Positions 340 through 62,281 of a DNA stretch of 64,000 nt are shown piece by piece. The notes under the pieces are model-generated. The model was not told the origin of the DNA, searched no databases, and saw only the letters and a program-made list of their open reading frames with translations. Each line of letters opens with the position of its first letter. Position 1 is the first letter of the stretch. The position numbers and the translations under genes were made by a program. Source of the DNA: Planctomycetota bacterium (lineage in GTDB: Bacteria; Planctomycetota; GCA-002687715); the NCBI GenBank assembly GCA_002683135.1, contig NYSS01000182.1, positions 14,005 to 78,004 of the forward strand. The letters are read 5' to 3'.

Positions 340-431
340 GTATGTAGAATTAACTATGAATTGGGTGGTTTATGCCACCCGCCAGATGATAAAAGGCGCA
401 CCTCGGTCCAGTCAGGGGTAGGAAAACCACA
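322..431 (+). promoter_or_regulatory. class-B promoter + pseudoknot (PK) leader
   Basis: TCGACA 322-327, N17, TAGAAT 345-350, with dyad ATATCTATTAGGTAT in the spacer. PK S1 GGC 395-397/GTC 406-408; S2 ACCTC 400-404/GGGGT 415-419; then AGGA. 12 nt to ATG 432. Confidence 0.6.
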
Positions 432-767
432 ATGAAATTCAGACTTGTTCAACTAACTAATGAAATCGTCGTTGTTACAGAATGTGGCGGCGTAGCCACT
501 ATATCTCAACCAGAGCGCAGCAACGAAGATGACAATCGCACGGCTATCACCGATTACTTTTGTTTGCGTATTACCGATTTGAAAAACCCTACAAAAGATA
601 ACGTATGGGATTTACTTGCCGAAGGTAAAGCCCAATACAATGAGTGGACTCACCACAAGTTTAACGACATAGAACTTATCATTGATGCACTCAAGTGGCT
701 TTCCCCATGTGAAAAGCACTGGGAACTGGTAAGGGATTTGTTCACAGAAATTTTTCCTCAATCGTAA
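432..767 (+). CDS. hypothetical protein (111 aa)
   Basis: Track ORF; ATG lies 12 nt after the PK leader. Confidence 0.65.
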   Translation: MKFRLVQLTNEIVVVTECGGVATISQPERSNEDDNRTAITDYFCLRITDLKNPTKDNVWDLLAEGKAQYNEWTHHKFNDIELIIDALKWLSPCEKHWELVRDLFTEIFPQS

Positions 768-780
768 ACCATTTAATTTG

Positions 781-800
781 GAGAGGGATACACCCCTCTC
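781..800 (+). terminator. hairpin GAGAGGG-atacac-CCCTCTC (weak terminator or attenuator)
   Basis: 7-bp stem 14 nt after the stop of 432..767, with a poor T-run. The same GGGATACACCC core recurs at 60301-60315. Confidence 0.3.
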
Positions 801-815
801 TTATGGAAAGATAAA

Positions 816-1316
816 ATGTGCTCACTTCTTATTGATAACGCTTTTAGTACTAGCATGATGCGAAAAGGTGTTACGTTCTCAAGAACTACTTCTCGTAATG
901 ATGTGGTTGATTGCTATCGAAATCTTAATAGAACTGATTTATTTAGCATCAAGCAGAGAAAAGGTGAATTCAAAGGCCTGGTAACAGGGTACGCCAGAGC
1001 TATTCTGATTGCTGAACCATCGTTTCATGTAGGTAAGTCTGCAAATGCGCGTATTAAACAAACGCAATCTAAAGAAGTGCACGCCTATGTACGCGGAAGC
1101 TTTTTTGATGCATTCACAAAAGAGTTAGATACCACGACATTAAACCAACCTCTACTTGTCTCCTACAATCCTTATTTATGCGATAGCTTCTTTACACTTG
1201 AGAGAGATAAGTTTGGTAAGGTTATCAAAGAATCAATAGCGCCGATTGGAAACAGATCGCCCTATAATTACGCGTTAATACAAGGAAAAGACGTTCACCT
1301 TTTCAATAGCCTATAA
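816..1316 (+). CDS. hypothetical protein (166 aa)
   Basis: Track ORF with GGAAAG upstream of the ATG; no family recognised. Confidence 0.5.
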   Translation: MCSLLIDNAFSTSMMRKGVTFSRTTSRNDVVDCYRNLNRTDLFSIKQRKGEFKGLVTGYARAILIAEPSFHVGKSANARIKQTQSKEVHAYVRGSFFDAFTKELDTTTLNQPLLVSYNPYLCDSFFTLERDKFGKVIKESIAPIGNRSPYNYALIQGKDVHLFNSL

Positions 1317-1318
1317 CG

Positions 1319-1663
1319 TCAAAAGCTTAATACCCACTGTGGAGTACAGCCAGCCTCATAGATAGCTGAAAATTTGGTATCAATAAGGTATTGATCAGGC
1401 CTCAAGCTAAGTTTCCCAGACATAGAACAATTAACTTCTATTATCCTTACTTTGGGCTCATAGTCAGATTCATTACCCACAAGTGAAAGTACATTAGGCA
1501 ATTCATATTCACTTGGCCAAAATAATTCTTTTGGCATAAAGCCTTCAAAAAAATGGGCAATATTCTCTTTGGATTCTGATTGATCATTCTCAACGACCAT
1601 CGAGATCGTTTTTTCATTATTGTCTATATAAGTTAATACAATTTCAATGAATTTAGGCGTCAT
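1319..1663 (-). CDS. hypothetical protein (114 aa)
   Basis: Track ORF, convergent with 816..1316. Confidence 0.5.
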   Translation of the reverse strand: MTPKFIEIVLTYIDNNEKTISMVVENDQSESKENIAHFFEGFMPKELFWPSEYELPNVLSLVGNESDYEPKVRIIEVNCSMSGKLSLRPDQYLIDTKFSAIYEAGCTPQWVLSF

Positions 1664-1775
1664 GATTTAGGTCTTGGGTTAGCATTAATGCACAAAGATG
1701 AATTCATATGCAAAATATAGCTTCTACTTTTTCAATTTTCTAGAAAGAATAATTATTAGGACTGGATAAAATCAC

Positions 1776-1945
1776 TTGACTATACCTATTGGGTATGTAT
1801 GATAAATGTAAATCGGGTAACTCCAAGTACCCTTTAATGATTATGGCGTGCAGGGCATCATACCACCAGCACAGTGTTTTTTGATTAATCATTTAGCGAT
1901 TATTAGATAACGATGCGCCTCGGTCTATCAGGGGCAGGAAAGACC
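1776..1945 (+). promoter_or_regulatory. class-B promoter + long leader ending in PK
   Basis: TTGACT 1776-1781, N16 (ATACCTATTGGGTATG), TATGAT 1798-1803. PK S2 GCCTC 1917-1921/GGGGC 1931-1935. 10 nt to ATG 1946. Confidence 0.55.
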
Positions 1946-2212
1946 ATGACAAATTTAATAATGATTAAATCACTTTTTAAAAAAGCGGATGCAATCTCAA
2001 TCGACGATGCTTTTATCTCTTACCTGGATGCTAGAGATACAGAGGCTGGTGGGATTGAAATCATCCATGAAGATGATCGCTTTGAATTTACTAAATCCCA
2101 TTTAGATGGTGCCATCCATGATAAAGATTTTAATGTTTGGACATTATTCGATTCTAACGAAAGCAAATATATAAGGGTGTCATTTTTTCTAGTAACACCG
2201 CTAAAAATATAA
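1946..2212 (+). CDS. hypothetical protein (88 aa)
   Basis: Start moved from track 1913 (which lies inside the leader) to ATG 1946, 10 nt after the PK. Confidence 0.6.
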   Translation: MTNLIMIKSLFKKADAISIDDAFISYLDARDTEAGGIEIIHEDDRFEFTKSHLDGAIHDKDFNVWTLFDSNESKYIRVSFFLVTPLKI

Positions 2213-2219
2213 AAACTTA

Positions 2220-2297
2220 TTGACATTCGTGCGCACAAATATTAATATTGATAACAGTTACAGCGCACCTCGGCTTAGTCAGGGGTAGGAAAAGACC
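2220..2297 (+). promoter_or_regulatory. class-A promoter/operator + PK leader
   Basis: TTGACA 2220-2225, GTGCGCAC 2229-2236, TAATAT 2243-2248. PK S1 AGC 2262-2264/GCT 2273-2275; S2 ACCTC 2267-2271/GGGGT 2282-2286. 11 nt to ATG. Confidence 0.8.
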
Positions 2298-3104: not shown

Positions 3105-3182
3105 TTGACATTCGTGCGCACAGATATTAATATGACTATTAATTAAGGCGCACCTCGGTCCATTCAGGGGTAGGAAATACAA
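3105..3182 (+). promoter_or_regulatory. class-A promoter/operator + PK leader
   Basis: TTGACA 3105-3110, GTGCGCAC 3114-3121, TAATAT 3128-3133. S2 ACCTC 3152-3156/GGGGT 3167-3171. Confidence 0.8.
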
Positions 3183-6082: not shown

Positions 6083-6157
6083 TTGTATTTCCTACCCCTG
6101 AAATGCCGAGGTGCACAATAATGATAACAATATTATTTATGTGCGCACGAATGTCAA
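6083..6157 (-). promoter_or_regulatory. class-A promoter/operator + PK leader (minus strand)
   Basis: Plus-strand coordinates: TGTCAA 6152-6157 (= -35 TTGACA), GTGCGCAC 6141-6148. PK S1 6115-6117/6104-6106 (UGU:GCA); S2 GAGGT 6108-6112/ACCCC 6094-6098. Confidence 0.8.
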
Positions 6158-6200: not shown

Positions 6201-6277
6201 TTACTTCTGTGCGCACATATATTAGTATTAATAAAAGTTAAGACGCGCCTCGGTCAGTCAGGGGTAGGAAAGAAACC
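6201..6277 (+). promoter_or_regulatory. class-A promoter/operator + PK leader (divergent partner of 6083-6157)
   Basis: TTACTT 6201-6206, GTGCGCAC 6209-6216, TAGTAT 6223-6228. S2 GCCTC 6247-6251/GGGGT 6261-6265 (G.U closing pair). Confidence 0.8.
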
Positions 6278-6886: not shown

Positions 6887-6920
6887 GACGCGCCTCGGTC
6901 ATCAGGGGCAGGTTTTTATC
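6887..6920 (+). promoter_or_regulatory. PK leader only (intercistronic)
   Basis: GAC 6887-6889; S2 GCCTC 6892-6896/GGGGC 6905-6909. No promoter hexamers. 11 nt to ATG 6921. Confidence 0.7.
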
Positions 6921-11666: not shown

Positions 11667-11749
11667 TGTATTTTCCTACCCCTGACTGGACCGAGGTGCA
11701 TCGATATAAAACTATATTACTACTTTTTATTTGTGCGCACAAATTTAAT
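11667..11749 (-). promoter_or_regulatory. class-A promoter/operator + PK leader (minus strand)
   Basis: GTGCGCAC 11733-11740; ATATTA 11714-11719 (= -10 TAATAT). S2 GAGGT 11693-11697/ACCCC 11678-11682. Weak -35. Confidence 0.7.
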
Positions 11750-13670: not shown

Positions 13671-13692
13671 AAAAGGCGGTTACCGCCTTTTT
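13671..13692 (+). terminator. rho-independent terminator of porin gene
   Basis: AAAAGGCGG-tta-CCGCCTTTTT. Confidence 0.7.
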
Positions 13693-13693
13693 A

Positions 13694-14142
13694 ATTTAAA
13701 ATCACCAAAACGGTGAAACATTTTTATCGATATCCGTGCTACGCACCTCTATCATTTAAAATCACCTAATGCGGTGACTCACTTAGCATGATTAAAGTCT
13801 CTCAAATGTGATTTCTTCTAAATCACCTATGCGGTGACTCACTTTATCGGTATCTTTCACGCTTATTTTTGCAACTTCTAAATCACCTATACGGTGACTC
13901 ACTTAGCATGATTAAAGTCTCTCAAATGTGATTCCTTCTAAATCACCTATGCGGTGAATCACGTGTGCTTTACTTCAGTTAATGAAGGCATGCACTTCTA
14001 AATCACCTATGCGGTGAATCACACGCTTTAGCGTTGAAAGCGTTATCTTTAATTCTTTTAAATCACCTATGCGGTGACTCACGTATTACAATAACTCGCG
14101 ACGCAACGCCGATTCTTCTAAATCACCTATGCGGTGACTCAC
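13694..14142 (-). CRISPR. CRISPR array: 8 repeats (6 canonical 28-nt, 2 degenerate distal) and 7 spacers (six of 32 nt, distal one 33 nt)
   Basis: Canonical repeats end at 13842, 13902, 13962, 14022, 14082 and 14142 (60-nt period). Minus-strand repeat GTGAGTCACCGCATAGGTGATTTAGAAG has type I-F-like architecture. Degenerate repeats 13694-13720 and 13754-13782 lie distal to the AT-rich leader. Confidence 0.95.
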
Positions 14143-20139: not shown

Positions 20140-20221
20140 TTGCATTGTGTGCGCACATAATATAATATAAACACATAGCAACGACGCACCTCGGTCACCA
20201 TTCAGGGGTAGGATAATAAAA
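20140..20221 (+). promoter_or_regulatory. class-A promoter/operator + PK leader
   Basis: TTGCAT 20140-20145, GTGCGCAC 20149-20156, TAATAT 20163-20168. S2 ACCTC 20188-20192/GGGGT 20205-20209. Confidence 0.8.
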
Positions 20222-22012
20222 ATGTTCTCAATCAAGAAGACAAAACTTCATAAAGCACTGGCACATGCATTAGGCAACCTTGAAGCGCTAACTAAGCGCT
20301 TAAAAGTCATGCAAGAAAGCCCGGACAGCCCACGCAAAAAAATTGTTATTTCTACTAAAGAGCTTTACGTATCATCACTTGGTGAAGGCACTAAAATGGT
20401 GGTAGAAGCACATAGTGACAAGTCTGCGCTCTTTATTCGACCAGCAACATTGTCTGACGGGAAAACACGTGTTGTATCTAAGCGTACCTATAAGAACCGT
20501 GATTACGTCGAGCCTGTTGTTGACATTCGTCACCAGCGCGACATTAATGCCACCATCGGTGATGCTGAATACGTACATGTAACGTTTCAAAAAGACGGAG
20601 CATGGGTTCGACCAGCAACCAAATATCAAGAAATCGCGCTTAAGCATCCATCAGGTGCTCACTTTGATATGACCATGCCAGATGAAGAGGGCCTTTACTC
20701 GCAGATATTAAAGGCGATTAAAATCACAAAGCAATCACACTTTTCATCAATCATCCTAAATACCTCTGATGATTTCTTACATTCAAAGGAATATGTCATT
20801 TTATGTGTGCAATTACGCCGACTCGGTTTCGATATCAAAGAAACAAACAACCTTGTATACGCTAAGCTCCCGCGCTCACCTGAGTTAGATAGTCACGAAT
20901 ATATCGATTTAGCGAGATACAACTACAAAACCAGCTTCCAGAGCATGGCCACACGCTTTAACTTCAATGAGCCGCTATCTACCTTTGCCGCATGTACTGC
21001 TGGCGTTGATATTCATGCCATGGAGAACGAAGGTTTTAAAACCACCAGCATTCTCGAATACCGTCCACCTGAGAAGCGTGATTTTAAAAAATCAGTTGAT
21101 AAAGTATCGGGTGAAACGGTGATCAAACACAACGACAAAACCGATACAGGTGCATTGTGCGCACTGTTAAACAGTAAGCATGCAAAAGTGGTATTCAACG
21201 AAGATATCTATGAGTTTGATTTTTATCGAGTCAGTCATTTATTGCCTGATTTCAATCATTTACATATAAGTGTGCAATGTGATGACTTTACTAATATGAA
21301 ATCTAATTCGTTAAAAGATAATAGCATTGACGATTTAAGTACAACCATTGACATGTTCATCCCAGCCCTTGAATTAGCGGACATGACAAACACGCCGACT
21401 ATGCTGGTGGAGAATGTAGTGAACTTCGGCAAATCAATTGAATGTCGCTTACTCTCCACTGGATTAAAGTGGTTGGGGCATGAAGTAAAAACGCATAATT
21501 ATAATGCTGCTGACTTTAATGGCATGACTAAGCGTGTACGTACTTACCTATTTTCTTCACAATTAGGTTTAGATGACATCAAAGCAACACCAGTAGCTCG
21601 ACGAGCCCATGCATGGAATGATGTTATTGCCCCTCGGTTAAATGAACTGCGCGACGTAACGCACTGCAAAACCATTCAGAAGGGCATTGATACCGGCCGT
21701 ATTCGTGTTATCAACGTGGGTGATGCTATTGTGCCAACTATTGTGAAATCACAATCTAGACAGGTGAAAGACAGCGTGTATGTCTACATGAATGGACGCT
21801 ATTACATGCCATCAAATGACATGCTAAAAGCGCTGATGGGCATTCCTGCTGATTTTAATACCGCGCCATTTAGCGAAGAAATTACGAGCGAAATCACAGG
21901 GCAGAGCATTGAATACCCGATGCATCAAGCTATTTGCGAAAAGGTTAAACAGCACATCTACCGGTTCGTGAAATCGTTTTTTGGCCTAAATATGTTAACC
22001 GTGCAGGCCTGA
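20222..22012 (+). CDS. DNA cytosine-5 methyltransferase-like protein with ~240-aa N-terminal extension
   Basis: C5-MTase motif order is recognisable: I FAACTAGVD, IV SVQCDDFT (QC instead of PC), VI LVENV, VIII KRVRTY, X GQSIEYP. Confidence 0.45.
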   Translation: MFSIKKTKLHKALAHALGNLEALTKRLKVMQESPDSPRKKIVISTKELYVSSLGEGTKMVVEAHSDKSALFIRPATLSDGKTRVVSKRTYKNRDYVEPVVDIRHQRDINATIGDAEYVHVTFQKDGAWVRPATKYQEIALKHPSGAHFDMTMPDEEGLYSQILKAIKITKQSHFSSIILNTSDDFLHSKEYVILCVQLRRLGFDIKETNNLVYAKLPRSPELDSHEYIDLARYNYKTSFQSMATRFNFNEPLSTFAACTAGVDIHAMENEGFKTTSILEYRPPEKRDFKKSVDKVSGETVIKHNDKTDTGALCALLNSKHAKVVFNEDIYEFDFYRVSHLLPDFNHLHISVQCDDFTNMKSNSLKDNSIDDLSTTIDMFIPALELADMTNTPTMLVENVVNFGKSIECRLLSTGLKWLGHEVKTHNYNAADFNGMTKRVRTYLFSSQLGLDDIKATPVARRAHAWNDVIAPRLNELRDVTHCKTIQKGIDTGRIRVINVGDAIVPTIVKSQSRQVKDSVYVYMNGRYYMPSNDMLKALMGIPADFNTAPFSEEITSEITGQSIEYPMHQAICEKVKQHIYRFVKSFFGLNMLTVQA

Positions 22013-22032: not shown

Positions 22033-22115
22033 TTGAATTTCGTGCGCACATAAAATAATATAAGTAAATACCAACGACGCACCTCGGTCATTCATTCAGG
22101 GGTAGGATAATAATC
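22033..22115 (+). promoter_or_regulatory. class-A promoter/operator + PK leader
   Basis: TTGAAT 22033-22038, GTGCGCAC 22042-22049, TAATAT 22056-22061. S2 ACCTC 22081-22085/GGGGT 22099-22103. Confidence 0.8.
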
Positions 22116-25895: not shown

Positions 25896-25971
25896 TTGAA
25901 ATGTGTGCGCACATATACTAAAGTAAACACATCAACGACGCACCTCGGTCATTCAGGGGTAGGAAGAAAAC
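25896..25971 (+). promoter_or_regulatory. class-A promoter/operator + PK leader
   Basis: TTGAAA 25896-25901, GTGCGCAC 25905-25912, TAAAGT 25919-25924. S2 ACCTC 25942-25946/GGGGT 25956-25960. Confidence 0.75.
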
Positions 25972-28704: not shown

Positions 28705-28782
28705 CTTGCTTTTGTGCGCACACTTTTTTATTATAAATAACAGTTACGACGCACCTCGGTCTTTCAGGGGTAGGACAACCAC
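28705..28782 (+). promoter_or_regulatory. class-A promoter/operator + PK leader
   Basis: CTTGCT 28705-28710, GTGCGCAC 28714-28721. S2 ACCTC 28753-28757/GGGGT 28767-28771. Confidence 0.75.
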
Positions 28783-29054: not shown

Positions 29055-29090
29055 GACGCTCCTCGGTCTCTCAGGGGTAGGAAGTAAACC
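29055..29090 (+). promoter_or_regulatory. PK leader only (intercistronic)
   Basis: GAC 29055-29057; S2 TCCTC 29060-29064/GGGGT 29074-29078 (U/U at the closing position). 12 nt to the ATG. Confidence 0.65.
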
Positions 29091-29539: not shown

Positions 29540-29572
29540 GATGCGTTGGTCTACAGGGGCAGGATAACACCA
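29540..29572 (+). promoter_or_regulatory. degenerate PK leader
   Basis: GATGCGTTGGTCTACAGGGGCAGGA: S1 (GAU:GUC), S2b and AGGA are kept, S2a is eroded. 12 nt to ATG 29573. Confidence 0.4.
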
Positions 29573-31568: not shown

Positions 31569-31645
31569 TTGATTTCTGTGCGCACATATTATAGTATATT
31601 CATCAGTTACGACGCACCCCGGTCAATCAGGGGTAGGAGATTATT
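31569..31645 (+). promoter_or_regulatory. class-A promoter/operator + PK leader
   Basis: TTGATT 31569-31574, GTGCGCAC 31578-31585, TAGTAT 31592-31597. S2 ACCCC 31616-31620/GGGGT 31630-31634 (U-to-C turns the wobble into a Watson-Crick pair). Confidence 0.8.
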
Positions 31646-31819: not shown

Positions 31820-31829
31820 GGTTATTATC

Positions 31830-32441: not shown

Positions 32442-32520
32442 TTGATATCTGTGCGCACATAATTTAATATAAACACATCAACGACGCACCTCGGTCTAGT
32501 TCAGGGGTAGGAAAATAACC
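32442..32520 (+). promoter_or_regulatory. class-A promoter/operator + PK leader
   Basis: TTGATA 32442-32447, GTGCGCAC 32451-32458, TAATAT 32465-32470. S2 ACCTC 32488-32492/GGGGT 32504-32508. Confidence 0.8.
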
Positions 32521-34808: not shown

Positions 34809-34834
34809 ATGCAACAATAAGAGGTTGATAAATA

Positions 34835-35278
34835 GTGATCAGAATTAGCAGCGAATATACGAGTGAGTTTCATTTTATTCACGACTCAAGCATGAACGTT
34901 GGTGATAGACCACCAGAATGTATAGAACCCTTTATTTGCCCACAAGAGGCCATGAACACGCTAATTTCTAGTGGAACTAAACATCAAGCCACTTTTGATT
35001 TGGTCGGCAGGTTCACAGCTCAACTAGATACTGTTAGCGATGTCGAAAAAATAGGTAACATGAATACCATGTTCATTGTCGGTGTTAGTAGGGAAGGCCG
35101 TTCCCCTAAAGAATCAAAGGTATTCAAAATCTTTTCCGATGTTAATAAAGCCTTTGCTTGTCGAGATGAGCAAAATGAAGATTATCACACATTTGAGGTT
35201 TTCTCGTTTGATTGCGAAATAACTAACAAATTCCAAAACATGGAAGAGGTCTCAAAAGTTTGGGAGCTGTATCAATAA
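34835..35278 (+). CDS. hypothetical protein (147 aa, GTG start)
   Basis: Track ORF with GAGG RBS. Confidence 0.5.
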   Translation: MIRISSEYTSEFHFIHDSSMNVGDRPPECIEPFICPQEAMNTLISSGTKHQATFDLVGRFTAQLDTVSDVEKIGNMNTMFIVGVSREGRSPKESKVFKIFSDVNKAFACRDEQNEDYHTFEVFSFDCEITNKFQNMEEVSKVWELYQ

Positions 35279-35892: not shown

Positions 35893-35961
35893 CTTACAAC
35901 TATTGTTTTGTTTGATAAGTTTTGCACAAAGAATATACTATAAGCATTATCATTTCTTCAG

Positions 35962-36657: not shown

Positions 36658-36675
36658 TGCGCCATGAGGTGTCAT

Positions 36676-36712
36676 AAAAAGCATGCTGCAGGCGATGTAG
36701 CATGCTTTTTTT
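36676..36712. terminator. bidirectional rho-independent terminator
   Basis: AAAAAGCATGCT-loop-AGCATGCTTTTTT between convergent genes. Confidence 0.75.
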
Positions 36713-36720
36713 GTTATATA

Positions 36721-37323
36721 TTAGGCTGCGCTTTTCTTGGATAAGTAATCATCCAACAAAGGGTGTTCGACTTGTAAGTGTTCAGATACACAATAAGTAG
36801 AAATAGCCGTTGGTATGTGGGCAGTGATTTTAGACACAAACAATGCCTTATTCTCAAAACTTTCCAATACAGCATAGCCTTCGTTCTGATATAAGGCAGC
36901 TACACGATGTTCTAAAAGCCAAAAGTTCATCGCACTTTCAACGTATTCATCTTTGAAAACCACATGATCAACATGCTTAGCGACGTAGTGCAACACACTG
37001 GCGTTTCTATTCATCCTGAAGCCATCTTCAGAAAACACAGTATCTTTACTATAAACCTCTTCGGCGTTAACCAATATTGGCTCTTTACTGACGTAAAAAA
37101 TGGATTTAGATACAGGGGTAATGAACTGCTTGACTGCAAGACCATTACAAACTTGGGTCAAATCGATACCTGGCTCGTGATAAGAAACCTCAATGACAAA
37201 AACATCACAATGATGCGCAATACACTTCAATGCCGGAACCAAACCCGTCTCGTTCTTACTTTCTAAATAGGTTTTTACTGCATTTATACCGACATCAATT
37301 GTCGATCTTAATACCATTCCCAT
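36721..37323 (-). CDS. hypothetical protein (200 aa)
   Basis: Track ORF. Confidence 0.55.
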   Translation of the reverse strand: MGMVLRSTIDVGINAVKTYLESKNETGLVPALKCIAHHCDVFVIEVSYHEPGIDLTQVCNGLAVKQFITPVSKSIFYVSKEPILVNAEEVYSKDTVFSEDGFRMNRNASVLHYVAKHVDHVVFKDEYVESAMNFWLLEHRVAALYQNEGYAVLESFENKALFVSKITAHIPTAISTYCVSEHLQVEHPLLDDYLSKKSAA

Positions 37324-37425
37324 AACTCTCTCGCTTAATGAACTAATTGCAAAATGAATAACTAATATGCAGCATAATGACTGTTTTTAATCATGTAAAG
37401 TTGCGTCTTCAAATGCGACTCAGAT

Positions 37426-37761
37426 TTACGTAGATAGCGCCTCTTTTTTATATATGTAGGCCGCACCTATACCAAGAGGGTGAACCGTCCAGATTAAAAT
37501 TGATAAAGCACTTACGACATATGCAGCAACATAATTCACCGTTTGACTATAAAAAGGCATGACATGCTCTATAGCGGGTAAGAGAACTGCTTTGATAGGG
37601 ACGCTGATTGACACAAGTGCAAGTAAAAGCGCACTCATCATTAAAAGTTGACTCTCAGCGAAACATTTCTCGGTGCTAAACGCTCTTCGAATTGTAATAA
37701 ATCCACAAATCCACCCAGTGATAGTAAACAAACAGAATAAAATTATCTGAACCATTTCCAT
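37426..37761 (-). CDS. membrane protein (111 aa)
   Basis: Track ORF; three hydrophobic segments. Confidence 0.55.
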   Translation of the reverse strand: MEMVQIILFCLFTITGWICGFITIRRAFSTEKCFAESQLLMMSALLLALVSISVPIKAVLLPAIEHVMPFYSQTVNYVAAYVVSALSILIWTVHPLGIGAAYIYKKEALST

Positions 37762-37773
37762 ATTTTCACCCTG

Positions 37774-37911
37774 TTATATTTTTCTTAAAAATACATCACC
37801 AGCTAACACTAACATCAACAGAAACAGGACAGCAAAAGTTATAGCAATAAAAAATAATGTCAGAAACTCACCTGGATTTTTTGATACCCATTCATCAATT
37901 TTTTTAAACAT
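37774..37911 (-). CDS. small membrane protein (45 aa), absent from ORF track
   Basis: ATG 37911; MFKKIDEWVSKNPGEFLTLFFIAITFAVLFLLMLVLAGDVFLRKI. Its stop lies 12 nt before the next start. Confidence 0.4.
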   Translation of the reverse strand: MFKKIDEWVSKNPGEFLTLFFIAITFAVLFLLMLVLAGDVFLRKI

Positions 37912-37983
37912 GTTATCCACTACTACCTGTTGTTAATACTAAAAAAACACATACGCATAAGACACTTCAAAATAAAGATTAAT

Positions 37984-38229
37984 TCACAAGTTCTCCAAAG
38001 ACCAGTCGTTAGCAGATACCGCATTTTCAAGAGAGTTGATATTAGCAACTAATTCAACAAGACCCAGAGATACTAATTTAGCGCGGGTGGCATCATCTAA
38101 ATAGACTGCGCGTGCACAATTAAGTAATGCATCTTCAGTTTTATTGCTGTCGCTATCAGTTGCTTCTGAAACAGGTGTACCAGTGAAAAATTCAAAAGCG
38201 GCTTCTTGAGATAAAATTGGAGTAATCAT
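37984..38229 (-). CDS. hypothetical protein (81 aa)
   Basis: Start moved from track TTG 38241 to ATG 38229, 11 nt after the PK. Confidence 0.65.
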   Translation of the reverse strand: MITPILSQEAAFEFFTGTPVSEATDSDSNKTEDALLNCARAVYLDDATRAKLVSLGLVELVANINSLENAVSANDWSLENL

Positions 38230-38309
38230 GTTGGTTTCCAACCCCTGAACTAGACCGAGGTGCGTCTTTAGATGTAATTTATATTAATTTGTGTGCGCAC
38301 ATAAGTCAA
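38230..38309 (-). promoter_or_regulatory. class-A promoter/operator + PK leader (minus strand)
   Basis: AGTCAA 38304-38309 (= -35 TTGACT), GTGCGCAC 38293-38300, ATATTA 38281-38286. S2 GAGGT 38257-38261/ACCCC 38241-38245. Confidence 0.8.
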
Positions 38310-38373
38310 TGTGAATTTTATTATGCAGTAACGCGAATGAGGCTAAGTTATCAAGTACAATTGCTGCAACGGA

Positions 38374-38805
38374 TCAGTCTTTAGCGAGCAAGCTAATGAA
38401 ATCATTACACCAATCTGGAAAATTAAGATCGAGCATTACATCTTCACGGTTTGCCCTGTTAACAAAGTAGGTATTGAGTTCTGAGATTGCTTTGCGTTTT
38501 TCCAAGCGCGAGAACTCAGCAAGGGCATCATCTGCCGTCGTATTTCTCGCATCCTTAATTTTATAGAAGGCATCCGGCTTTCCTTCTTTCATCTCCCAAG
38601 ATACCTGCATCAATAGCGCATTATGTGCAGCAAGTTCTGTCACTTTTTGTTTTGCTTCGGCAAGTGCCAACTCAAGCGCTTTGATCTGATTTTCAGCGTC
38701 ATCTAGATCGCACGTATCGCATTTTCCTATTTGACTGCCGTGTACACAGTCTCTTGGGTGGTCTTTGGTTCTGTGTAGCAGTTCATCACTCATTCTCTTC
38801 TCCAA
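38374..38805 (-). CDS. hypothetical protein (143 aa, coiled-coil segment)
   Basis: Track ORF. Confidence 0.55.
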   Translation of the reverse strand: MEKRMSDELLHRTKDHPRDCVHGSQIGKCDTCDLDDAENQIKALELALAEAKQKVTELAAHNALLMQVSWEMKEGKPDAFYKIKDARNTTADDALAEFSRLEKRKAISELNTYFVNRANREDVMLDLNFPDWCNDFISLLAKD

Positions 38806-38970
38806 CGTGGATTGCGCTTTCTATCACCTTTGCTTCGCTTTTCAAAATGACACTTTTGACCAGCTCGTTTTTCAAACGAGCATATGTGCTCAACCTGTTT
38901 TTTCGTAAGCAAAGGCTCATCATCGAAATTCATATCATCAAGTGCTTTTCTAAACAGGTTGATTGCCATT
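38790..38970 (-). CDS. small basic hypothetical protein (about 60 aa)
   Basis: Internal ATG (MAINLF...) of track ORF 38790..39035; overlaps its neighbours by a few codons. Confidence 0.35.
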
Positions 38971-39246
38971 ATCTTGATCCAAACTCTTGTGATAATCATG
39001 ATCTTGTACAAATTCTTCGCCGTGCACAGCGCCAAACGGGTGAGGCCATTTATCCCATTTCACACGATGACCTTCCCAGCAGTCATGACCGACAACCTCA
39101 CCAAGACCATCTTTTTCGGCATAAAGGTTTCCTGGACTAAACTCATCAGGCCCACTGGACAACTCTTTAACAAATTTGATTCGAGTGCCGATTGGAAGCT
39201 TGACCTCTTTCATGTTTAGTTTTTTCGGAAATTTCATAAAGGCCAT
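38950..39246 (-). CDS. hypothetical protein (98 aa)
   Basis: Track ORF in the minus-strand operon. Confidence 0.5.
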   Translation of the reverse strand: MAFMKFPKKLNMKEVKLPIGTRIKFVKELSSGPDEFSPGNLYAEKDGLGEVVGHDCWEGHRVKWDKWPHPFGAVHGEEFVQDHDYHKSLDQDNGNQPV

Positions 39247-39266
39247 GGAAATATTCTCTGTGAAAT

Positions 39267-39635
39267 CTACAATTTCAATGTTTGTTTTGCGGCGTAAATA
39301 ACTTCATCAGCCCAGTCATGATCAAAACCGGGCATAGCGGGTAACTTCGCAACTACCTCATCCGGCAAGGCATCTATATATTCTTTCTGTGCCTCTATAA
39401 TATCCAATAGAGACTTAATCATTTTTTTACCCGCTACCATTTCAAAAACTTCAAACCCAAATTTTTCGCCTAAAACAGATTCTAGTGCGCCTTCTCTAGC
39501 ATCATCATGATTATCGAACGTTGCAAACTCAGCCTCATTTGTCGCAATGTTTGTACAGCGCATTAAAGGAATAAAACCACCGCTTTGGGTATTTAGCATT
39601 ACAAAAAATCGCCCTTTTTCACACATGTCTCTCAT
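39267..39635 (-). CDS. hypothetical protein (122 aa); C-terminal 50 aa paralogous to 61445..61603
   Basis: MIKSLLDIIEAQKEYIDALPDEVVAKLPAMPGFDHDWADEVIYAAKQ aligns with MIKELLEIIEAQREYIDALPESVVSTLPVMPGHDRDWADEVIYAAKK. Confidence 0.55.
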   Translation of the reverse strand: MRDMCEKGRFFVMLNTQSGGFIPLMRCTNIATNEAEFATFDNHDDAREGALESVLGEKFGFEVFEMVAGKKMIKSLLDIIEAQKEYIDALPDEVVAKLPAMPGFDHDWADEVIYAAKQTLKL

Positions 39636-39903
39636 TCCTATTTAATTGTTGATTAGTACCTAACGCCATTGCCCATAGATTCGCTATTTTGGTTCGACTT
39701 TCTATGTCTATCACTTTGACTTGTCGATTAGGTTTAGCGGTTTCAATAGTCTGATATTTATCAGCATGGCGTATATTGTAAAGTAGCCCTGATGCTTTAT
39801 AGGCAGGTATACCCAGAGCCTTACCTAATGATGAAGCCGTGTGGAATTGTCCCGATTTCAACATGATTTCAGCTGCTTCTAGCGTTGTTACCTTTTGTTT
39901 CAT
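39619..39903 (-). CDS. small protein, possible winged-helix DNA binder
   Basis: 94 aa; the TTLEAAEIMLKSGQFHTASSLGKALGIPAYKASGLLYNI layout is wHTH-like. Weak call. Confidence 0.4.
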   Translation of the reverse strand: MKQKVTTLEAAEIMLKSGQFHTASSLGKALGIPAYKASGLLYNIRHADKYQTIETAKPNRQVKVIDIESRTKIANLWAMALGTNQQLNRNERHV

Positions 39904-40233: not shown

Positions 40234-40311
40234 GGCATGTGTCCTACCCCTGAAATGACCGAGGTGCGTCGTTGATGTGAATATTATAATTTATGTGCGC
40301 ACATAAATCAA
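40234..40311 (-). promoter_or_regulatory. class-A promoter/operator + PK leader (minus strand)
   Basis: AATCAA 40306-40311 (= TTGATT), GTGCGCAC 40295-40302. S2 GAGGT 40261-40265/ACCCC 40246-40250. Confidence 0.8.
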
Positions 40312-42047: not shown

Positions 42048-42124
42048 GATAAATTCCTACCCCTGACTAAGCCGAGGTGCGCCGTGTTAATGATAATAAT
42101 AATTTCCGTGCGCACATAAGTCAA
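42048..42124 (-). promoter_or_regulatory. class-A promoter/operator + PK leader (minus strand)
   Basis: AGTCAA 42119-42124, GTGCGCAC 42108-42115. PK S1 42081-42083/42070-42072 (GGC:GCU); S2 GAGGT 42074-42078/ACCCC 42059-42063. Confidence 0.8.
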
Positions 42125-46159: not shown

Positions 46160-46198
46160 CGTTTTTCCTGCCCCAGACAGTCGAGGCGCACTATATTA
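46160..46198 (-). promoter_or_regulatory. PK leader only (minus strand)
   Basis: PK S1 46190-46192/46179-46181 (AGU:ACU); S2 GAGGC 46183-46187/GCCCC 46170-46174. ATATTA 46193-46198 may be a -10. Confidence 0.65.
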
Positions 46199-46371: not shown

Positions 46372-46450
46372 AATTAACTCCAACCCCTGAATGGTGACCG
46401 AGGTGCATCGTTGATGTGCTTATAATAATTTACGTGCGCACGAAAAGCAA
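46372..46450 (-). promoter_or_regulatory. class-A promoter/operator + PK leader (minus strand)
   Basis: AAGCAA 46445-46450 (= TTGCTT), GTGCGCAC 46434-46441. S2 GAGGT 46400-46404/ACCCC 46383-46387. Confidence 0.8.
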
Positions 46451-48703: not shown

Positions 48704-48786
48704 ATGTTTTATCCAACCCCTGATAGTGTGACCGAGGTGCGTCGTAGGTATGTACTAACATTATTATTTGTGCGCACAAATATCAA
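48704..48786 (-). promoter_or_regulatory. class-A promoter/operator + PK leader (minus strand)
   Basis: TATCAA 48781-48786 (= TTGATA), GTGCGCAC 48770-48777. S2 GAGGT 48734-48738/ACCCC 48716-48720. Confidence 0.8.
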
Positions 48787-49752: not shown

Positions 49753-49852
49753 GAAAATATCCAACCCCTGAAAATGGTCGAGGTGCACCGTGTTTGTTTA
49801 TTCGTTGTATCCAACTTAATAGTAATTATACATACCTATTAGATATGGTCAA
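49753..49852 (-). promoter_or_regulatory. class-B promoter + PK leader (minus strand)
   Basis: Minus-strand reading: TTGACC-N16 (ATATCTAATAGGTATG)-TATAAT (plus 49847-49852, 49831-49846, 49825-49830). PK S1 49787-49789/49776-49778 (GGU:ACC); S2 GAGGT 49780-49784/ACCCC 49764-49768. Confidence 0.7.
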
Positions 49853-51637: not shown

Positions 51638-51717
51638 TTGACAACTGTGCGCACGGAATATATTATCTTTAAAAGACTTTGATGCACCTCGGTCACCACT
51701 CAGGGGTAGGAAAAACC
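51638..51717 (+). promoter_or_regulatory. class-A promoter/operator + PK leader
   Basis: TTGACA 51638-51643, GTGCGCAC 51647-51654, TATTAT 51661-51666. S2 ACCTC 51686-51690/GGGGT 51703-51707. Confidence 0.8.
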
Positions 51718-52336: not shown

Positions 52337-52373
52337 GATGCGCCTCGATCACTTCTCAGGGGCAGGAATAAAG
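52337..52373 (+). promoter_or_regulatory. PK leader only
   Basis: PK S1 GAT 52337-52339/ATC 52348-52350; S2 GCCTC 52342-52346/GGGGC 52359-52363. 10 nt to ATG 52374. Confidence 0.65.
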
Positions 52374-56436: not shown

Positions 56437-56517
56437 TTTACTTTTGTGCGCACGAATAATATAATGAACACATCTCAAGACGCGCCTCGGTCACCATTCA
56501 GGGGTTGGAAATTAGTT
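56437..56517 (+). promoter_or_regulatory. class-A promoter/operator + PK leader
   Basis: TTTACT 56437-56442, GTGCGCAC 56446-56453, TATAAT 56460-56465. S2 GCCTC 56484-56488/GGGGT 56501-56505. Confidence 0.8.
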
Positions 56518-57207: not shown

Positions 57208-57288
57208 TTGATATTTGTGCGCACGAATAATATGATAAATACATCTCAAGACGCACCTCGGTCATACCATCAGGGGTTGGAATTAACC
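57208..57288 (+). promoter_or_regulatory. class-A promoter/operator + PK leader
   Basis: TTGATA 57208-57213, GTGCGCAC 57217-57224, TATGAT 57231-57236. S2 ACCTC 57255-57259/GGGGT 57273-57277. Confidence 0.8.
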
Positions 57289-57685: not shown

Positions 57686-57720
57686 GACGCGCCTCGGTCT
57701 TTCTGGGGCAGGATAACGAT
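57686..57720 (+). promoter_or_regulatory. PK leader only (intercistronic)
   Basis: GAC 57686-57688; S2 GCCTC 57691-57695/GGGGC 57705-57709. 11 nt to the ATG. Confidence 0.7.
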
Positions 57721-59827: not shown

Positions 59828-59908
59828 TTTACTTTTGTGCGCACATAAAATAATATAAACACATAGCAAAGACGCACCTCGGTCACCATTCAGGGGTAGG
59901 AAAAAACA
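59828..59908 (+). promoter_or_regulatory. class-A promoter/operator + PK leader
   Basis: TTTACT 59828-59833, GTGCGCAC 59837-59844, TAATAT 59851-59856. S2 ACCTC 59876-59880/GGGGT 59893-59897. Confidence 0.8.
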
Positions 59909-60326: not shown

Positions 60327-60361
60327 GACGCGCCTCGGTCATTCAGGGGCTGGTAAATACA
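60327..60361 (+). promoter_or_regulatory. PK leader only (intercistronic)
   Basis: GAC 60327-60329; S2 GCCTC 60332-60336/GGGGC 60346-60350. Preceded by hairpin AAGGG-ataca-CCCTT at 60301-60315. Confidence 0.7.
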
Positions 60362-60658: not shown

Positions 60659-60689
60659 ATTTTTTAATATCCTCAAGGAAACCCATCAT

Positions 60690-60947
60690 ATGACGCTAGA
60701 ACATTTATCAGCAATGCCACCTGAACAGGTAATGCAGTGGATTAAGGCTCATAAAGGAAGCTTTACGTTAGTACCAAATGTACCGAGTCATGAATTTTTG
60801 AGTACCTTTATTTTGCATATGCCTGCAGCAATGGATCAAACGACAGCTGATGCAGTGGCTAAACAATACTGCGAATATCATGAAGAAGTTATAGAGTCCA
60901 CTAAACAGCACTTTTCATGTGTTGATGAATCTATTGAGTCTAATTAA
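60690..60947 (+). CDS. hypothetical protein (85 aa)
   Basis: Track ORF with AAGGAA RBS. Confidence 0.55.
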   Translation: MTLEHLSAMPPEQVMQWIKAHKGSFTLVPNVPSHEFLSTFILHMPAAMDQTTADAVAKQYCEYHEEVIESTKQHFSCVDESIESN

Positions 60948-60973
60948 TAAATAACACTTACTTAGGGAGCCTT

Positions 60974-61192
60974 ATGAATAAAAGTACAAAAGCGGCCTTG
61001 CTAGTATATGCCACACCATTTTTGGCTATTTTCGGCTTAGAACTGCTCATGTTTTTTTATGTAAAGCCTATGGTACTGGAAAAAGTGCCTTCTGCTGGCA
61101 ATTTATGGCAGTTCCATGTTCTCGGTATAGCTATCATAATTGGTCTTTGGTATCCCATTAGAAAGTGGATATATAAAGATTTGATGAAATAA
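60974..61192 (+). CDS. small membrane protein (72 aa)
   Basis: Two hydrophobic segments; GGGAG RBS. Confidence 0.55.
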   Translation: MNKSTKAALLVYATPFLAIFGLELLMFFYVKPMVLEKVPSAGNLWQFHVLGIAIIIGLWYPIRKWIYKDLMK

Positions 61193-61220
61193 CAATATTA
61201 AGCCGACAGGAGAATGTTCT

Positions 61221-61424
61221 ATGGCTAACAAAATCAGACCTTTTGGCATTTACAACATTAATCCTGCGAGTATTTCGCCTTCAGGGTATGATGTTGCGGA
61301 TTGCCAAGATCTGCTTCCAAAAGGAGAGCGGATCAGAAACAAGAAGTTAAAGCGCCGTAGACATAATAAAATGGCGCGTGTTGCAGCTAAGCAGGCTTTA
61401 TATAAAGAACTGATAGTGGCTTAA
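61221..61424 (+). CDS. small basic protein (67 aa)
   Basis: KKLKRRRHNKMARVAAK; AGGAG RBS. Confidence 0.5.
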   Translation: MANKIRPFGIYNINPASISPSGYDVADCQDLLPKGERIRNKKLKRRRHNKMARVAAKQALYKELIVA

Positions 61425-61444
61425 CTCTTAGTGAGGAATTCAAA

Positions 61445-61603
61445 ATGATTAAAGAATTATTGGAAATAATTGAGGCACAGCGAGAGTATATTGACGCCTT
61501 GCCTGAATCAGTGGTTTCGACGTTACCAGTTATGCCCGGTCACGATAGAGATTGGGCTGACGAGGTAATTTATGCTGCTAAGAAGTCCTTGGACGACAAA
61601 TAA
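61445..61603 (+). CDS. small protein (52 aa), absent from ORF track; paralog of C-terminus of 39267..39635
   Basis: ATG 61445 with GAGGA RBS; about 70 percent identical by eye to residues 72-121 of the 122-aa protein. Confidence 0.6.
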   Translation: MIKELLEIIEAQREYIDALPESVVSTLPVMPGHDRDWADEVIYAAKKSLDDK

Positions 61604-61736
61604 CCGGTCATTAATCAGTATATCATTCGGGTATAAAAATACGGCAACCTTCACAATAGGTTTTACTTTAGTTCCATAGATATCGTGAACTAGTGATAAA
61701 AATTACGAAAAAAGTGGTGAAAGAGATAAATAAATG

Positions 61737-61818
61737 TTGATTTCTGTGCGCACACACAGTAATATAAACACATAGCAAAGACGCACCTCGGTCACCATTC
61801 AGGGGTAGGACATTAACC
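61737..61818 (+). promoter_or_regulatory. class-A promoter/operator + PK leader
   Basis: TTGATT 61737-61742, GTGCGCAC 61746-61753, TAATAT 61760-61765. S2 ACCTC 61785-61789/GGGGT 61802-61806. Confidence 0.8.
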
Positions 61819-62232
61819 ATGAATATTCAGTCATCGAATACACAGAACTTCGACCTTCGTAACTACTACCTTTTCATTAAAATTGCCCAGGATGACTTTA
61901 ACGGCGAACTTAACCTATCTCACGTTGAGCTGAAAAACGGCAACACCAGCCAGCCGTTAGAAATTAATTCGGTAATAGGCATGAAGTATGACGCTAATCA
62001 GTACACGTTGATCTGCAAATTTGATGATGAACATGCAGACTATTGTGATTCACCCGAAGCATTACGTCGTATCTTTGAAGCAATCCATTCTTCTACAAGC
62101 GATGCCTACATTGATTTGACTGCTGATGTTGATTCACTCGATGTAGACGCTACATTAAATAACATCATTGAAATTCAATTATATTCAGACTCTGACCTCA
62201 AGTTTTCAAAATCAGTCGCAATCGTCCATTAA
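61819..62232 (+). CDS. hypothetical protein (137 aa)
   Basis: Track ORF after an A-module. Confidence 0.7.
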   Translation: MNIQSSNTQNFDLRNYYLFIKIAQDDFNGELNLSHVELKNGNTSQPLEINSVIGMKYDANQYTLICKFDDEHADYCDSPEALRRIFEAIHSSTSDAYIDLTADVDSLDVDATLNNIIEIQLYSDSDLKFSKSVAIVH

Positions 62233-62244
62233 TTTGTAATCATT

Positions 62245-62281
62245 GACGCGCCTCGGTCTTTCAGGGGCAGGATAAACCAAC
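62245..62281 (+). promoter_or_regulatory. PK leader only (intercistronic)
   Basis: GAC 62245-62247; S2 GCCTC 62250-62254/GGGGC 62264-62268. 13 nt to the ATG. Confidence 0.7.

Follow-up and report, generated by a model that had tools for sequence, protein, structure and literature searches.

A compact H-type RNA pseudoknot joined to the Shine-Dalgarno sequence precedes unrelated genes of plasmids and phages

Introduction

A stretch of 64,000 nucleotides (nt) from contig NYSS01000182.1 (assembly GCA_002683135.1, positions 14,005 to 78,004; hereafter the window) raises the question of why one short element should be repeated, always in the same orientation and at nearly the same distance, in front of the start codons of genes that appear to have little else in common. 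An initial annotation, made from the letters of this DNA alone, had described the element as a pseudoknot RNA leader shared by the genes of one mobile element. Here we ask what the element is, how it is joined to the ribosome-binding site, how far it has spread and what it may do.

Over the 12 kb compared, the window is ~98% identical to pKD01, a 336-kb plasmid of Alteromonas macleodii KD01, and the 302-kb A. mediterranea plasmid MRG65-300 has 88% identity to it; no match to the window was found in sequenced phages. It carries a type IV-A CRISPR-Cas locus, DNA methylases and toxin-antitoxin modules, has a GC content of 39.6% over its 64 kb, and the large majority of its open reading frames (ORFs) belong to no Pfam family.

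Results

Thirty-two copies precede start codons in the window

The element, which we call the knot, consists of two helices, S1 and S2 (5′ strands S1a and S2a, 3′ strands S1b and S2b), joined by the loops L1, L2 and L3. The expression GC[AG]CC[TC]CG, which covers its most constant part, matches 30 sites in the window, against ~2 expected from base composition. The full architecture N3-GC-RCCYC-G-N3-(2-9 nt + UCA/UCU)-GGGGY-W-GG-N was present at all 30, each of which is followed after 6-9 nt by an ATG or GTG opening an ORF of 49-596 amino acids. A covariance model (R1) made from 106 distinct copies, with which the window was scanned with filters off, gave 31 matches of 28-47 bits (E 1e-5 to 1e-10) and one decayed copy (29540-29564, 14.6 bits), the next match reaching only 6 bits. 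The two copies missed by the expression are that at 29055, whose S2a reads UCCUC and breaks the closing pair, and the decayed one, whose S2a is lost.

Most of what the initial annotation had counted is borne out by these scans. Its total of 32 copies corresponds to the 31 strong matches and the decayed one; its list of S1 variants is correct throughout, and its S2 counts are exact for the 30 copies found by the expression (20 ACCUC:GGGGU, 7 GCCUC:GGGGC, 2 GCCUC:GGGGU and 1 ACCCC:GGGGU). The copies always lie in the sense of the downstream ORF, as it had stated, with 10-13 nt from the last S2 base to the start codon. The division between strands, given as 21 forward and 11 reverse, is in fact 23 and 9. 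The GC of L1, the G of L2 and a UCA at the end of L3 had been called invariant; the first two are indeed unchanged in 31 of 32 copies, whereas UCA ends only 28 of the 32 loops, the others ending in UCU (three copies, at 46192, 57686 and the decayed 29540) or ACA (one).

A classical H-type pseudoknot on the sense strand

S1 is a helix of 3 bp with free sequence, L1 is GC, S2 is a helix of 5 bp with the sequence RCCYC:GGGGY, a single G forms the junction, and L3 has 3-12 nt and ends in UCA, the whole knot measuring 28-32 nt. In an alignment of 106 distinct copies (A2), 98.9% of the cells of this pseudoknot are paired, compared with 23-59% when the partners are slid by 1-3 columns. Within S1, 97% of the cells are paired. 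All three S1 pairs change on both sides, with 4-6 pair types each (G-C, A-U, C-G, U-A, G.U, U.G), and the S1 covariation score was reached by none of 500 shuffles. S1 had been left free by the pattern used to scan metagenomes; among the unfiltered short-loop matches of that scan, 64 of 85 form all three S1 pairs and 18 form two of three, while a control triplet one step upstream pairs completely in only 3 of 106 copies. The relatedness of the copies was controlled for with orthologue pairs from the window and MRG65-300. These carry compensatory S1 changes, from GAC:GUC to AAC:GUU in copy 40270 and from GGC:GCU to GAC:GUC in copy 42083, with C-G to U.G elsewhere. L1, S2 and the junction G are unchanged in the orthologues even where the flanks are only 69-78% identical.

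S2 behaves differently from S1. A survey that allowed up to two deviations anywhere in the ten S2 positions gave, for 132 distinct copies, 105 ACCUC:GGGGU, 15 GCCUC:GGGGU, 8 GCCUC:GGGGC, 2 ACCCC:GGGGU and 2 UCCUC:GGGGU, and nothing else. The deviations are confined to the closing pair or the wobble pair and keep the pairing in 25 of 27 cases. GGGGC always occurs with GCCUC (8 versus 0), giving closing pairs of A-U, G.U or G-C and never A..C; the U.G wobble is kept or exchanged for C-G, and the three inner G-C pairs are invariant. The earlier statement that both helices covary therefore holds for S1 and, within S2, for the closing pair only, the other four pairs never changing on both sides. 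The perfect complement GAGGU is absent among ~130 copies, and a free search of 1.5 Mb of loci for other fully paired S2 sequences returned matches at chance level only, which indicates that S2 is constrained in sequence and not merely in pairing. In the metagenome set this invariance is partly one of ascertainment, as the scan pattern fixed S2; it is equal in the window and in secondary copies of the same loci, where any sequence was allowed.

In nested folding S2 forms the consensus hairpin (~-5 kcal/mol) and is present in four of five single-sequence folds; S1 is not formed in minimum-energy folds computed without pseudoknots. A 3-bp helix closing an 8-nt loop is unstable alone, so that selection on S1 implies that it is stacked on S2, that is, a pseudoknot. 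The loops fit the classical H-type sterically, with the 2 nt of L1 crossing the 5-bp deep groove, 1 nt at the junction and at least 3 nt of L3 crossing the 3-bp shallow groove. About 11% of S1 cells are G.U; these and the U.G of S2 become A.C mismatches on the other strand, and hence the fold is available only to the sense strand, i.e. the mRNA. As read from its sequences, then, the element is a compact classical H-type RNA pseudoknot that is specific to the sense strand, and S1 covariation, the compensatory changes between orthologues and the G.U asymmetry uphold the RNA-level pseudoknot first proposed.

The knot is joined rigidly to the Shine-Dalgarno sequence

Although nothing had been imposed after S2b, W-GGA occupies positions +1 to +4 in ~88% of 139 cores, and in 112 of the 139 an ATG follows 11-13 nt after S2b. 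Residue +1 is A or U, G and C being very rare there. The 3′ strand of S2 passes through this single A or U directly into GGA(G), with the start codon 6-8 nt further on, and the linker between knot and Shine-Dalgarno (SD) sequence is fixed at one nucleotide across unrelated elements.

The last base of L1 together with S2a reads CACCUC, which is identical to positions 1533-1538 of the 16S rRNA, near its 3′ end (GAUCACCUCCUUA). By this identity the S2 helix would imitate an SD:anti-SD duplex, with GGGGU as an imperfect SD. GGGGU itself sits too far upstream to be a productive SD, the real one starting one nucleotide after it. We therefore consider, as a tentative idea drawn from sequence, that the knot might be a portable imitation of the SD:anti-SD duplex that stacks on the true SD:anti-SD helix or occupies the 30S platform.

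The knot is spread over unrelated plasmids and phages

The knot had been presented as a device of this one mobile element; its core recurs in unrelated plasmids and phages. A scan of species-representative genomes, one per species and limited to copies with S1b = GTC, gave mostly chance matches in GC-rich genomes; the true copies that it found are in an Alteromonadaceae metagenome-assembled genome, in Rheinheimera sp. WS51 and in Marinobacter vinifirmus FB1, where 4-5 lie within 7 kb. The pattern GCACCTCG-N5-17-TCAGGGGTWGGA, which fixes the sequence of S2, was found at no fewer than 102 loci (at least) in JGI metagenomes, and the core occurs at 22 loci in IMG/VR, where the loci tested carry capsid, portal, tail and serine-recombinase genes. 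Altogether there are more than 130 distinct copies, on contigs of 36-65% GC and nearly all 6-8 nt upstream of an ATG. A BLAST search with 13 concatenated knot variants found only five plasmids in PLSDB, two from Vibrio, two from Alteromonas and one from Bermanella.

The clearest arrangement is that of a complete 51.8-kb F-type plasmid of Vibrio alginolyticus (NZ_CP110672.1), in which 12 copies precede 12 consecutive genes on the same strand. They make up a single block (31.6-39.7 kb) in which an orphan N6-methylase and an ArdC-like protein are encoded, as one would expect for a leading or establishment region. As the initial annotation had noted for the window, the genes downstream are heterogeneous; their products are mostly orphans, the recurrent identifiable ones being N6 and C5 DNA methylases, ParB-like and HNH proteins, and no metabolic theme is common to them.

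The sequence upstream is wholly different between families, the knot and its SD being the constant part. In the Alteromonas family it is a sigma70 promoter with the palindrome GTGCGCAC. In copies of the Vibrio/Marinobacter type there are short palindromes (e.g. TTGCGCATTCGCGCAA) abutting S1 and, further upstream, a 26-nt imperfect hairpin CAGGGTGGGCTTCGGCCTGGTACCTG. This arrangement, with terminators between genes, is seen at 31600-39700 of NZ_CP110672.1 (locus L204) and at loci L005, L140, L103 and L115. No recognisable sigma70 promoter was found in the Vibrio-type units, which may be transcribed from an unusual promoter, from a single-stranded-DNA promoter, or by read-through with processing. 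Sigma54 was considered for the TGGTAC-N-TTGC upstream of these copies and rejected, the GG-to-GC spacing being 8 nt and not 10. At ~30 metagenome and IMG/VR loci the knot belongs to a 75-nt TATAAT cassette, TTGTGCGTATATAATAGAACTCATGGAAGGCAACAACGCCAACCA plus knot, that stands before unrelated small ORFs and appears to be a mobile promoter-leader unit. Examples are L184 (2787-2860), L111, L119, L156, L200 and L203; two of these, L184 and L203, are IMG/VR loci in which a serine recombinase is encoded together with capsid/portal or tail genes.

Promoters and genomic context in the window

The palindrome GTGCGCAC occurs 22 times in the window against 0.35 expected. It lies within the spacer of a good sigma70-type promoter (TTGAYN-...-TAATAT), often as TGTGCGCACA, and 21 knot copies are positioned 31-38 nt downstream of it, so that 21 of the 22 palindromes drive a knot-bearing leader. 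It has the appearance of an operator for a single global repressor, or else of a methylation site (GCGC and TGCGCA occur in it). The palindrome without a knot, at 21157, is inside the ORF at 20222-22009. A second promoter/operator class (class B), TATCTATTRGGTATGTAKAAT, is present at 334-354, 1787-1807, 45097 (-) and ~49830 (-); a hairpin of the GGGTG...CACCC type comes after each, and three of the four sites lead to a knot.

Eight window copies have no promoter and lie in short intercistronic gaps, while the promoter-proximal copies have ~10-25 nt of RNA 5′ of the knot. Copies without the GTGCGCAC promoter include those at 1912, 6887, 29540, 46192, 52337, 57686, 60327 and 62245; the copy at 29055 differs. 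All seven GCCUC:GGGGC copies belong to this group and most are intercistronic, and in the copies with the GTGCGCAC promoter the S2 closing pair is always A-U or G.U. The G-C-closed copies are either a separate cassette lineage or a sign that a stronger S2 is needed where an upstream ribosome unwinds the knot. A 96-nt promoter-plus-knot query matched 24 places in pKD01 and 22 in MRG65-300; with both plasmids larger than 300 kb, this points to a clustering of most copies in the part that the window covers.

The knots of the window travel with a repeated promoter-operator cassette (21 of the 22 palindromes standing beside one), as do those of the ~30 metagenome loci that share the 75-nt unit. This association would suit a site that acts in the DNA, as an operator or through the structure of the transferred single strand, or a functionless hitch-hiker of the promoter cassette. 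We hold such a reading to be highly improbable. The core is conserved across families with unrelated upstream cassettes, copies without any promoter exist between cistrons, orientation and distance are always tied to a start codon, and orthologues show compensatory substitutions; the G.U pairing, moreover, is asymmetric in duplex DNA and fails on the complementary strand. Nor does the knot resemble a single-stranded-DNA promoter of the Frpo type, a long hairpin that rebuilds -35 and -10 boxes. It has 28-32 nt, no such boxes and pairing that needs sense-strand G.U, and ordinary duplex sigma70-type promoters lie upstream of it in the window.

Table 1 Copies of the pseudoknot in the window (positions of the 64,000-nt stretch; an empty cell means that no value is given)
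Position	Strand	Type	S1	S2	L3	SD	Start codon	Bits	Upstream element	Remarks
395..423	+	PK copy	GGC:GUC	ACCUC:GGGGU	CAGUCA	AGGA	AUG 432	40.1	class-B promoter at 334	
1912..1939	+	PK copy	GAU:GUC	GCCUC:GGGGC	UAUCA		AUG 1946	39.3	no GTGCGCAC promoter; class-B promoter 125 nt upstream	
2262..2290	+	PK copy	AGC:GCU	ACCUC:GGGGU			AUG 2298	41.9	GTGCGCAC promoter at 2229	
3147..3175	+	PK copy	GGC:GUC	ACCUC:GGGGU			AUG 3183	42.2	GTGCGCAC at 3114	
6090..6117	-	PK copy	UGU:GCA	ACCUC:GGGGU			AUG 6082	42.3	GTGCGCAC at 6141	DUF6884 protein
6242..6269	+	PK copy	GAC:GUC	GCCUC:GGGGU			AUG 6278	42.3	GTGCGCAC at 6209	G.U closing pair
6887..6913	+	PK copy, intercistronic	GAC:GUC	GCCUC:GGGGC	AUCA	AGGU	AUG 6921	32.9	no promoter	orthologue identical
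11674..11702	-	PK copy	GAU:GUC	ACCUC:GGGGU			GUG 11666	41.0	GTGCGCAC at 11733	N6 DNA methylase
20183..20213	+	PK copy	GAC:GUC		ACCAUUCA		AUG 20222	42.9	GTGCGCAC at 20149	596-aa methyltransferase-like ORF
22076..22107	+	PK copy	GAC:GUC		AUUCAUUCA		AUG 22116	41.9	GTGCGCAC at 22042	
25937..25964	+	PK copy	GAC:GUC		AUUCA		AUG 25972	46.6	GTGCGCAC at 25905	
28748..28775	+	PK copy	GAC:GUC		UUUCA		AUG 28783	47.1	GTGCGCAC at 28714	orthologue (69% flank identity) keeps PK with GAU:GUC
29055..29082	+	PK copy, intercistronic		S2a UCCUC			AUG 29091	35.8		closing pair broken; orthologue has canonical ACCUC
29540..29564	+	decayed copy					AUG 29573	14.6		S2a lost (GAUGCGUUGGUC UACA GGGGC AGGA); E 0.03
31611..31638	+	PK copy		ACCCC:GGGGU			AUG 31646	40.9	GTGCGCAC at 31578	C-G in place of U.G
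32483..32512	+	PK copy	GAC:GUC		UAGUUCA		AUG 32521	42.3	GTGCGCAC at 32451	GHKL ATPase; orthologue GCCUC:GGGGU
38237..38266	-	PK copy	GAC:GUC			UGGA	AUG 38229	42.6	GTGCGCAC at 38293	
40242..40270	-	PK copy	GAC:GUC				GUG 40233	45.4	GTGCGCAC at 40295	orthologue AAC:GUU, a compensatory change
42055..42083	-	PK copy	GGC:GCU				AUG 42047	40.4	GTGCGCAC at 42108	orthologue GAC:GUC, a compensatory change
46166..46192	-	PK copy, intercistronic	AGU:ACU	GCCUC:GGGGC	GUCU		AUG 46159	28.2		
46379..46409	-	PK copy	GAU:GUC			UGGA	AUG 46371	41.4	GTGCGCAC at 46434	
48712..48743	-	PK copy	GAC:GUC		ACACUAUCA		AUG 48703	42.2	GTGCGCAC at 48770	
49760..49789	-	PK copy	GGU:ACC			UGGA	AUG 49752	43.1	class-B promoter upstream	
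51681..51711	+	PK copy	GAU:GUC				AUG 51718	38.9	GTGCGCAC at 51647	
52337..52367	+	PK copy, intercistronic	GAU:AUC	GCCUC:GGGGC			AUG 52374	33.5		
56479..56509	+	PK copy		GCCUC:GGGGU		UGGA	AUG 56518	40.9	GTGCGCAC at 56446	
57250..57281	+	PK copy	GAC:GUC		AUACCAUCA		AUG 57289	38.9	GTGCGCAC at 57217	
57686..57713	+	PK copy, intercistronic		GCCUC:GGGGC	UUUCU		AUG 57721	37.2		
59871..59901	+	PK copy	GAC:GUC				AUG 59909	42.9	GTGCGCAC at 59837	
60327..60354	+	PK copy, intercistronic		GCCUC:GGGGC		UGGU	AUG 60362	36.8		
61780..61810	+	PK copy	GAC:GUC				AUG 61819	42.9	GTGCGCAC at 61746	
62245..62272	+	PK copy, intercistronic		GCCUC:GGGGC			AUG 62282	41.6		
PK, pseudoknot; aa, amino acids.

Other features of the window were recorded alongside. 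A CRISPR array at 13686-14142 has ~8 repeats of 28 nt (CTTCTAAATCACCTATGCGGTGACTCAC) with a 60-nt period and adjoins the type IV-A genes, of which csf3, csf2, csf1 and csf5 lie on the minus strand at ~14.2-17.5 kb and csf4/dinG at 17.8-20.1 kb; the spacers at ~13783-13814 and ~13903-13934 are nearly identical. Relative to ~34.2-34.8 kb of the window, pKD01 has a group II intron (ltrA; 36385-37656 of locus L001) for which there is no counterpart among the window ORFs with a Pfam match, and which is among the few structural differences between the plasmids.

No partner gene accompanies the knot in the loci sampled

The search for a partner covered 64 kb of a plasmid larger than 300 kb and other loci of at most 14 kb each. 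All-versus-all clustering of the ORFs of 92 knot-bearing loci gave no co-occurring protein partner; the largest ORF 'family' proved to be an artefactual translation of the conserved promoter-knot cassette, and a single match, at metagenome locus L118, accounts for the one protein family common to the window and the non-Alteromonas knot loci. No CsrA, Hfq or ProQ domain was found in the window. The complement of CAGGGGWWGG, as an anti-knot small RNA (sRNA) would contain, was found outside knots only as scattered one-mismatch matches inside genes. Neither the type IV-A CRISPR repeat nor Csf5 could be linked to the knot: there is no sequence similarity, and the other knot loci sampled have no csf genes.

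These results bear on the possibility of a post-transcriptional regulon with the knot as its shared operator, in which a trans-acting RNA-binding protein or sRNA reads the surface of S2, L1 and UCA. Such a regulator might be encoded by plasmid or host (CsrA/RsmA-like, ProQ/FinO-like or novel) and might switch the genes jointly, for example on at entry and off after establishment. In its favour, S2, L1 GC, the junction G and UCA are invariant while S1 covaries freely, as is characteristic of a surface recognised base by base; a plasmid may carry up to 32 copies before functionally unrelated genes; the distribution is confined to mobile elements; and a repressor could hardly be better placed than beside the SD. 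There is also a loose resemblance of UCAGGGG and WGGA to CsrA-type GGA sites. Against these points stand, within the limited sampling described, the lack of a co-occurring protein family, of a known RNA-chaperone domain in the window and of a complementary sRNA-like sequence outside the knots. CsrA in particular needs GGA in a hairpin loop (A/UCANGGANGU/A), usually at two sites at least 10 nt apart, and the knot offers neither: the first candidate, in UCAGGGG, is GGG and forms part of the S2 helix, the second, which is the SD itself, comes just 5 nt later, and no CsrA gene lies in the window. We therefore judge a trans-acting regulator to be possible but doubtful.

A further reading, which the presence of Csf5, a Cas6-like RNA endonuclease, on the plasmid would suit, is an element of mRNA stability or processing, either a barrier to RNase E or host toxins or an endonuclease cut site in polycistronic transcripts. 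Knots occur both near 5′ ends and between cistrons, as such an element might, and in several families extra hairpins or palindromes precede them. This reading is nevertheless unlikely, since the knot is not at the extreme 5′ end of promoter-proximal transcripts, neither a rigid 1-nt SD junction nor a fixed AUG spacing is needed for stability, the CRISPR repeat is unlike the knot, and most knot-bearing elements show no csf genes. The absence of a protein shared among the elements sampled, the 36-65% GC of the hosts and the use of the knot both in leaders and between cistrons suggest that its partner is the ribosome itself.

Comparison with known RNA elements

Rfam 15 gave no matches to the whole window at gathering thresholds, and for five knot-rich loci searched at E <= 10 it returned only unrelated weak matches, none overlapping a knot. 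Literature searches by topic and by sequence string found no description of the motif, the string matches being unrelated primers. The initial view that this is not a named RNA family agrees with both searches.

Among pseudoknots at the ribosome-binding site, plasmid rep activators offer a close parallel. In ColIb-P9, translation of repZ is activated by a pseudoknot that forms directly 5′ of the SD and holds both the SD and the start codon accessible (PMC4705826). The repZ/repA activators of IncI-alpha (ColIb-P9), IncB, IncK and IncL/M plasmids are, like the knot, plasmid-borne, with a 3′ strand just upstream of the SD, and act positively on initiation. They are, however, long-range, a hairpin loop GGCG pairing with CGCC ~100 nt downstream of it, whereas the knot is self-contained in 28-32 nt. 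They are induced by translation of a leader peptide and antagonised by an antisense RNA, and no antisense partner of the knot was seen. They also occur once per plasmid, at the replication gene, and the knot in up to 32 copies before unrelated non-rep genes and with a different sequence; of the features that define these activators, the SD-adjacent position alone is shared.

A second group are the leader pseudoknots that bind ribosomal protein S1 or the 30S subunit. Protein S1 binds H-type pseudoknots with nM affinity, and in tisB mRNA a 5′ pseudoknot is needed for 30S and S1 binding (PMC7708055); more generally such leader pseudoknots raise the affinity for 30S or S1 and are required for initiation (PMC7708055, PMC3858243). 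Those of tisB +42, the rpsO leader and the S1 ligands obtained by in vitro selection (SELEX) are likewise H-type and lie in 5′ leaders, and the S1-helix covariation, S2 energy and closing-pair covariation give the knot the same topology. The tisB knot, by contrast, acts as a standby element ~100 nt away from a sequestered ribosome-binding site, and that of rpsO takes in the start region and serves as a trap under the control of a repressor; neither has a fixed 1-nt SD linker or an RCCYC:GGGGY helix or occurs in many copies.

Size and topology also recall the small pseudoknot riboswitches. If the knot were a very small aptamer of preQ1-I size, its ligand, a host metabolite or ion, would be sensed at the S1/S2 junction and would tune how the early genes of the mobile element are translated. 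A 28-nt H-type knot in which one helix covaries freely and the loop and junction nucleotides do not change would suit this, as would an SD placement like that of preQ1-I, SAM-II, SAM-V and guanidine-III (PMC11625349); preQ1-I, SAM-II/V and guanidine-III likewise have ~30-45 nt and an H-type fold with invariant loop or junction bases at the ribosome-binding site. In those RNAs, however, the SD is part of the knot or masked by it, whereas here it (WGGAG) lies 1 nt outside S2 and is always free. No alternative SD-masking pairing was seen by inspection, CCUC against GGAG giving at most 3 bp. No Rfam riboswitch model matched even at E <= 10, there is no sequence relation to known small pseudoknot riboswitches, the regulated genes are heterogeneous mobile-element genes without a common metabolic theme, and tens of copies per replicon are unlike known riboswitches. 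A riboswitch is thus very unlikely.

Luteovirus-type frameshifting pseudoknots (28 nt in beet western yellows virus, BWYV) are similarly very short, with a 2-nt L1 containing C, one junction nucleotide and an L3 in the minor groove, and their sequence is conserved because of tertiary triples. They are eukaryotic viral elements that lie inside coding sequence and act on elongating ribosomes, and the knot has no sequence relation to them. By analogy, the likeness may serve as a lead to why S2 and L1 are invariant, and is no functional assignment.

By comparison with these systems, the knot would appear to work most like the SD-adjacent IncI/IncB rep activator and the S1-binding leader pseudoknots. 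A leader pseudoknot acting at the ribosome-binding site is thus of an already known kind; new are the family itself, the rigid fusion to the SD with a strand identical to the anti-SD, and the multi-copy portable cassette found across plasmids and phages.

Discussion

Taking position and architecture together, we favour the reading that the knot is a portable cis-acting translation-initiation module of mobile elements, fused to the SD and helping 30S docking, and give it a probability of roughly 0.45. In this model the knot would lock the RNA 5′ of the SD into a single fold and so leave the SD and start codon single-stranded whatever the promoter, leader, upstream cistron or host. The distal end of S2 would then be offered for coaxial stacking with the SD:anti-SD helix or, alternatively, the structured surface of the knot would be offered to the 30S platform or to protein S1. 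The outcome would be fast, context-independent loading of ribosomes onto genes that a plasmid or phage needs early, which here may be the orphan methylases, the ParB-like and ArdC-neighbouring genes and the many small orphan proteins. The use of the knot in two contexts, promoter-proximal leaders and intercistronic gaps, favours such a module. Stacking, 30S or S1 docking and a positive effect on translation are all steps that we infer.

Several observations weigh against a translation-initiation module. The positive effect on translation is deduced from position only, and many of the adjoining SDs (UGGAG, AGGAG) are good ones in any case. Were the role purely one of shape or stacking, it would not be obvious why the sequence of S2, L1, the junction G and UCA should be invariant beside a free S1; the same split would also be expected if these bases were read specifically by a protein or a ligand or engaged in tertiary triples. 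A simple good enhancer should also be used by some chromosomal genes, whereas the species-representative scan, limited to copies with S1b = GTC, found real copies only on plasmid-like contigs. At the sensitivity used, the BLAST search with the 13 knot variants gave no match in E. coli complete genomes or in INPHARED phages. Finally, the stability computed without the knot is no better than that of shuffled sequence (z ~0), nested-fold z-scores being uninformative here.

If a translation-initiation module is confirmed, the knot would be a new and widespread family of cis-acting RNAs, ~28 nt long and joined to the ribosome-binding site, with a range that takes in plasmids, megaplasmids and phages of Proteobacteria and metagenomes from marine, freshwater, groundwater and sludge samples. 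Should S2 truly imitate the SD:anti-SD duplex, it would be a host- and promoter-independent ribosome-capture device for the first genes expressed in a new cell, a bacterial mobile-element counterpart of a miniature internal ribosome entry site (mini-IRES). As a small, modular and apparently host-independent element, the knot would also be attractive in synthetic biology, as an insulator for ribosome-binding sites. Mobile elements would then carry their own standardised translation-initiation cassette, paired in the plasmid studied here with a standardised promoter and operator, which would bear on the question of how establishment and anti-restriction genes come to be expressed at once when DNA enters an unfamiliar host.

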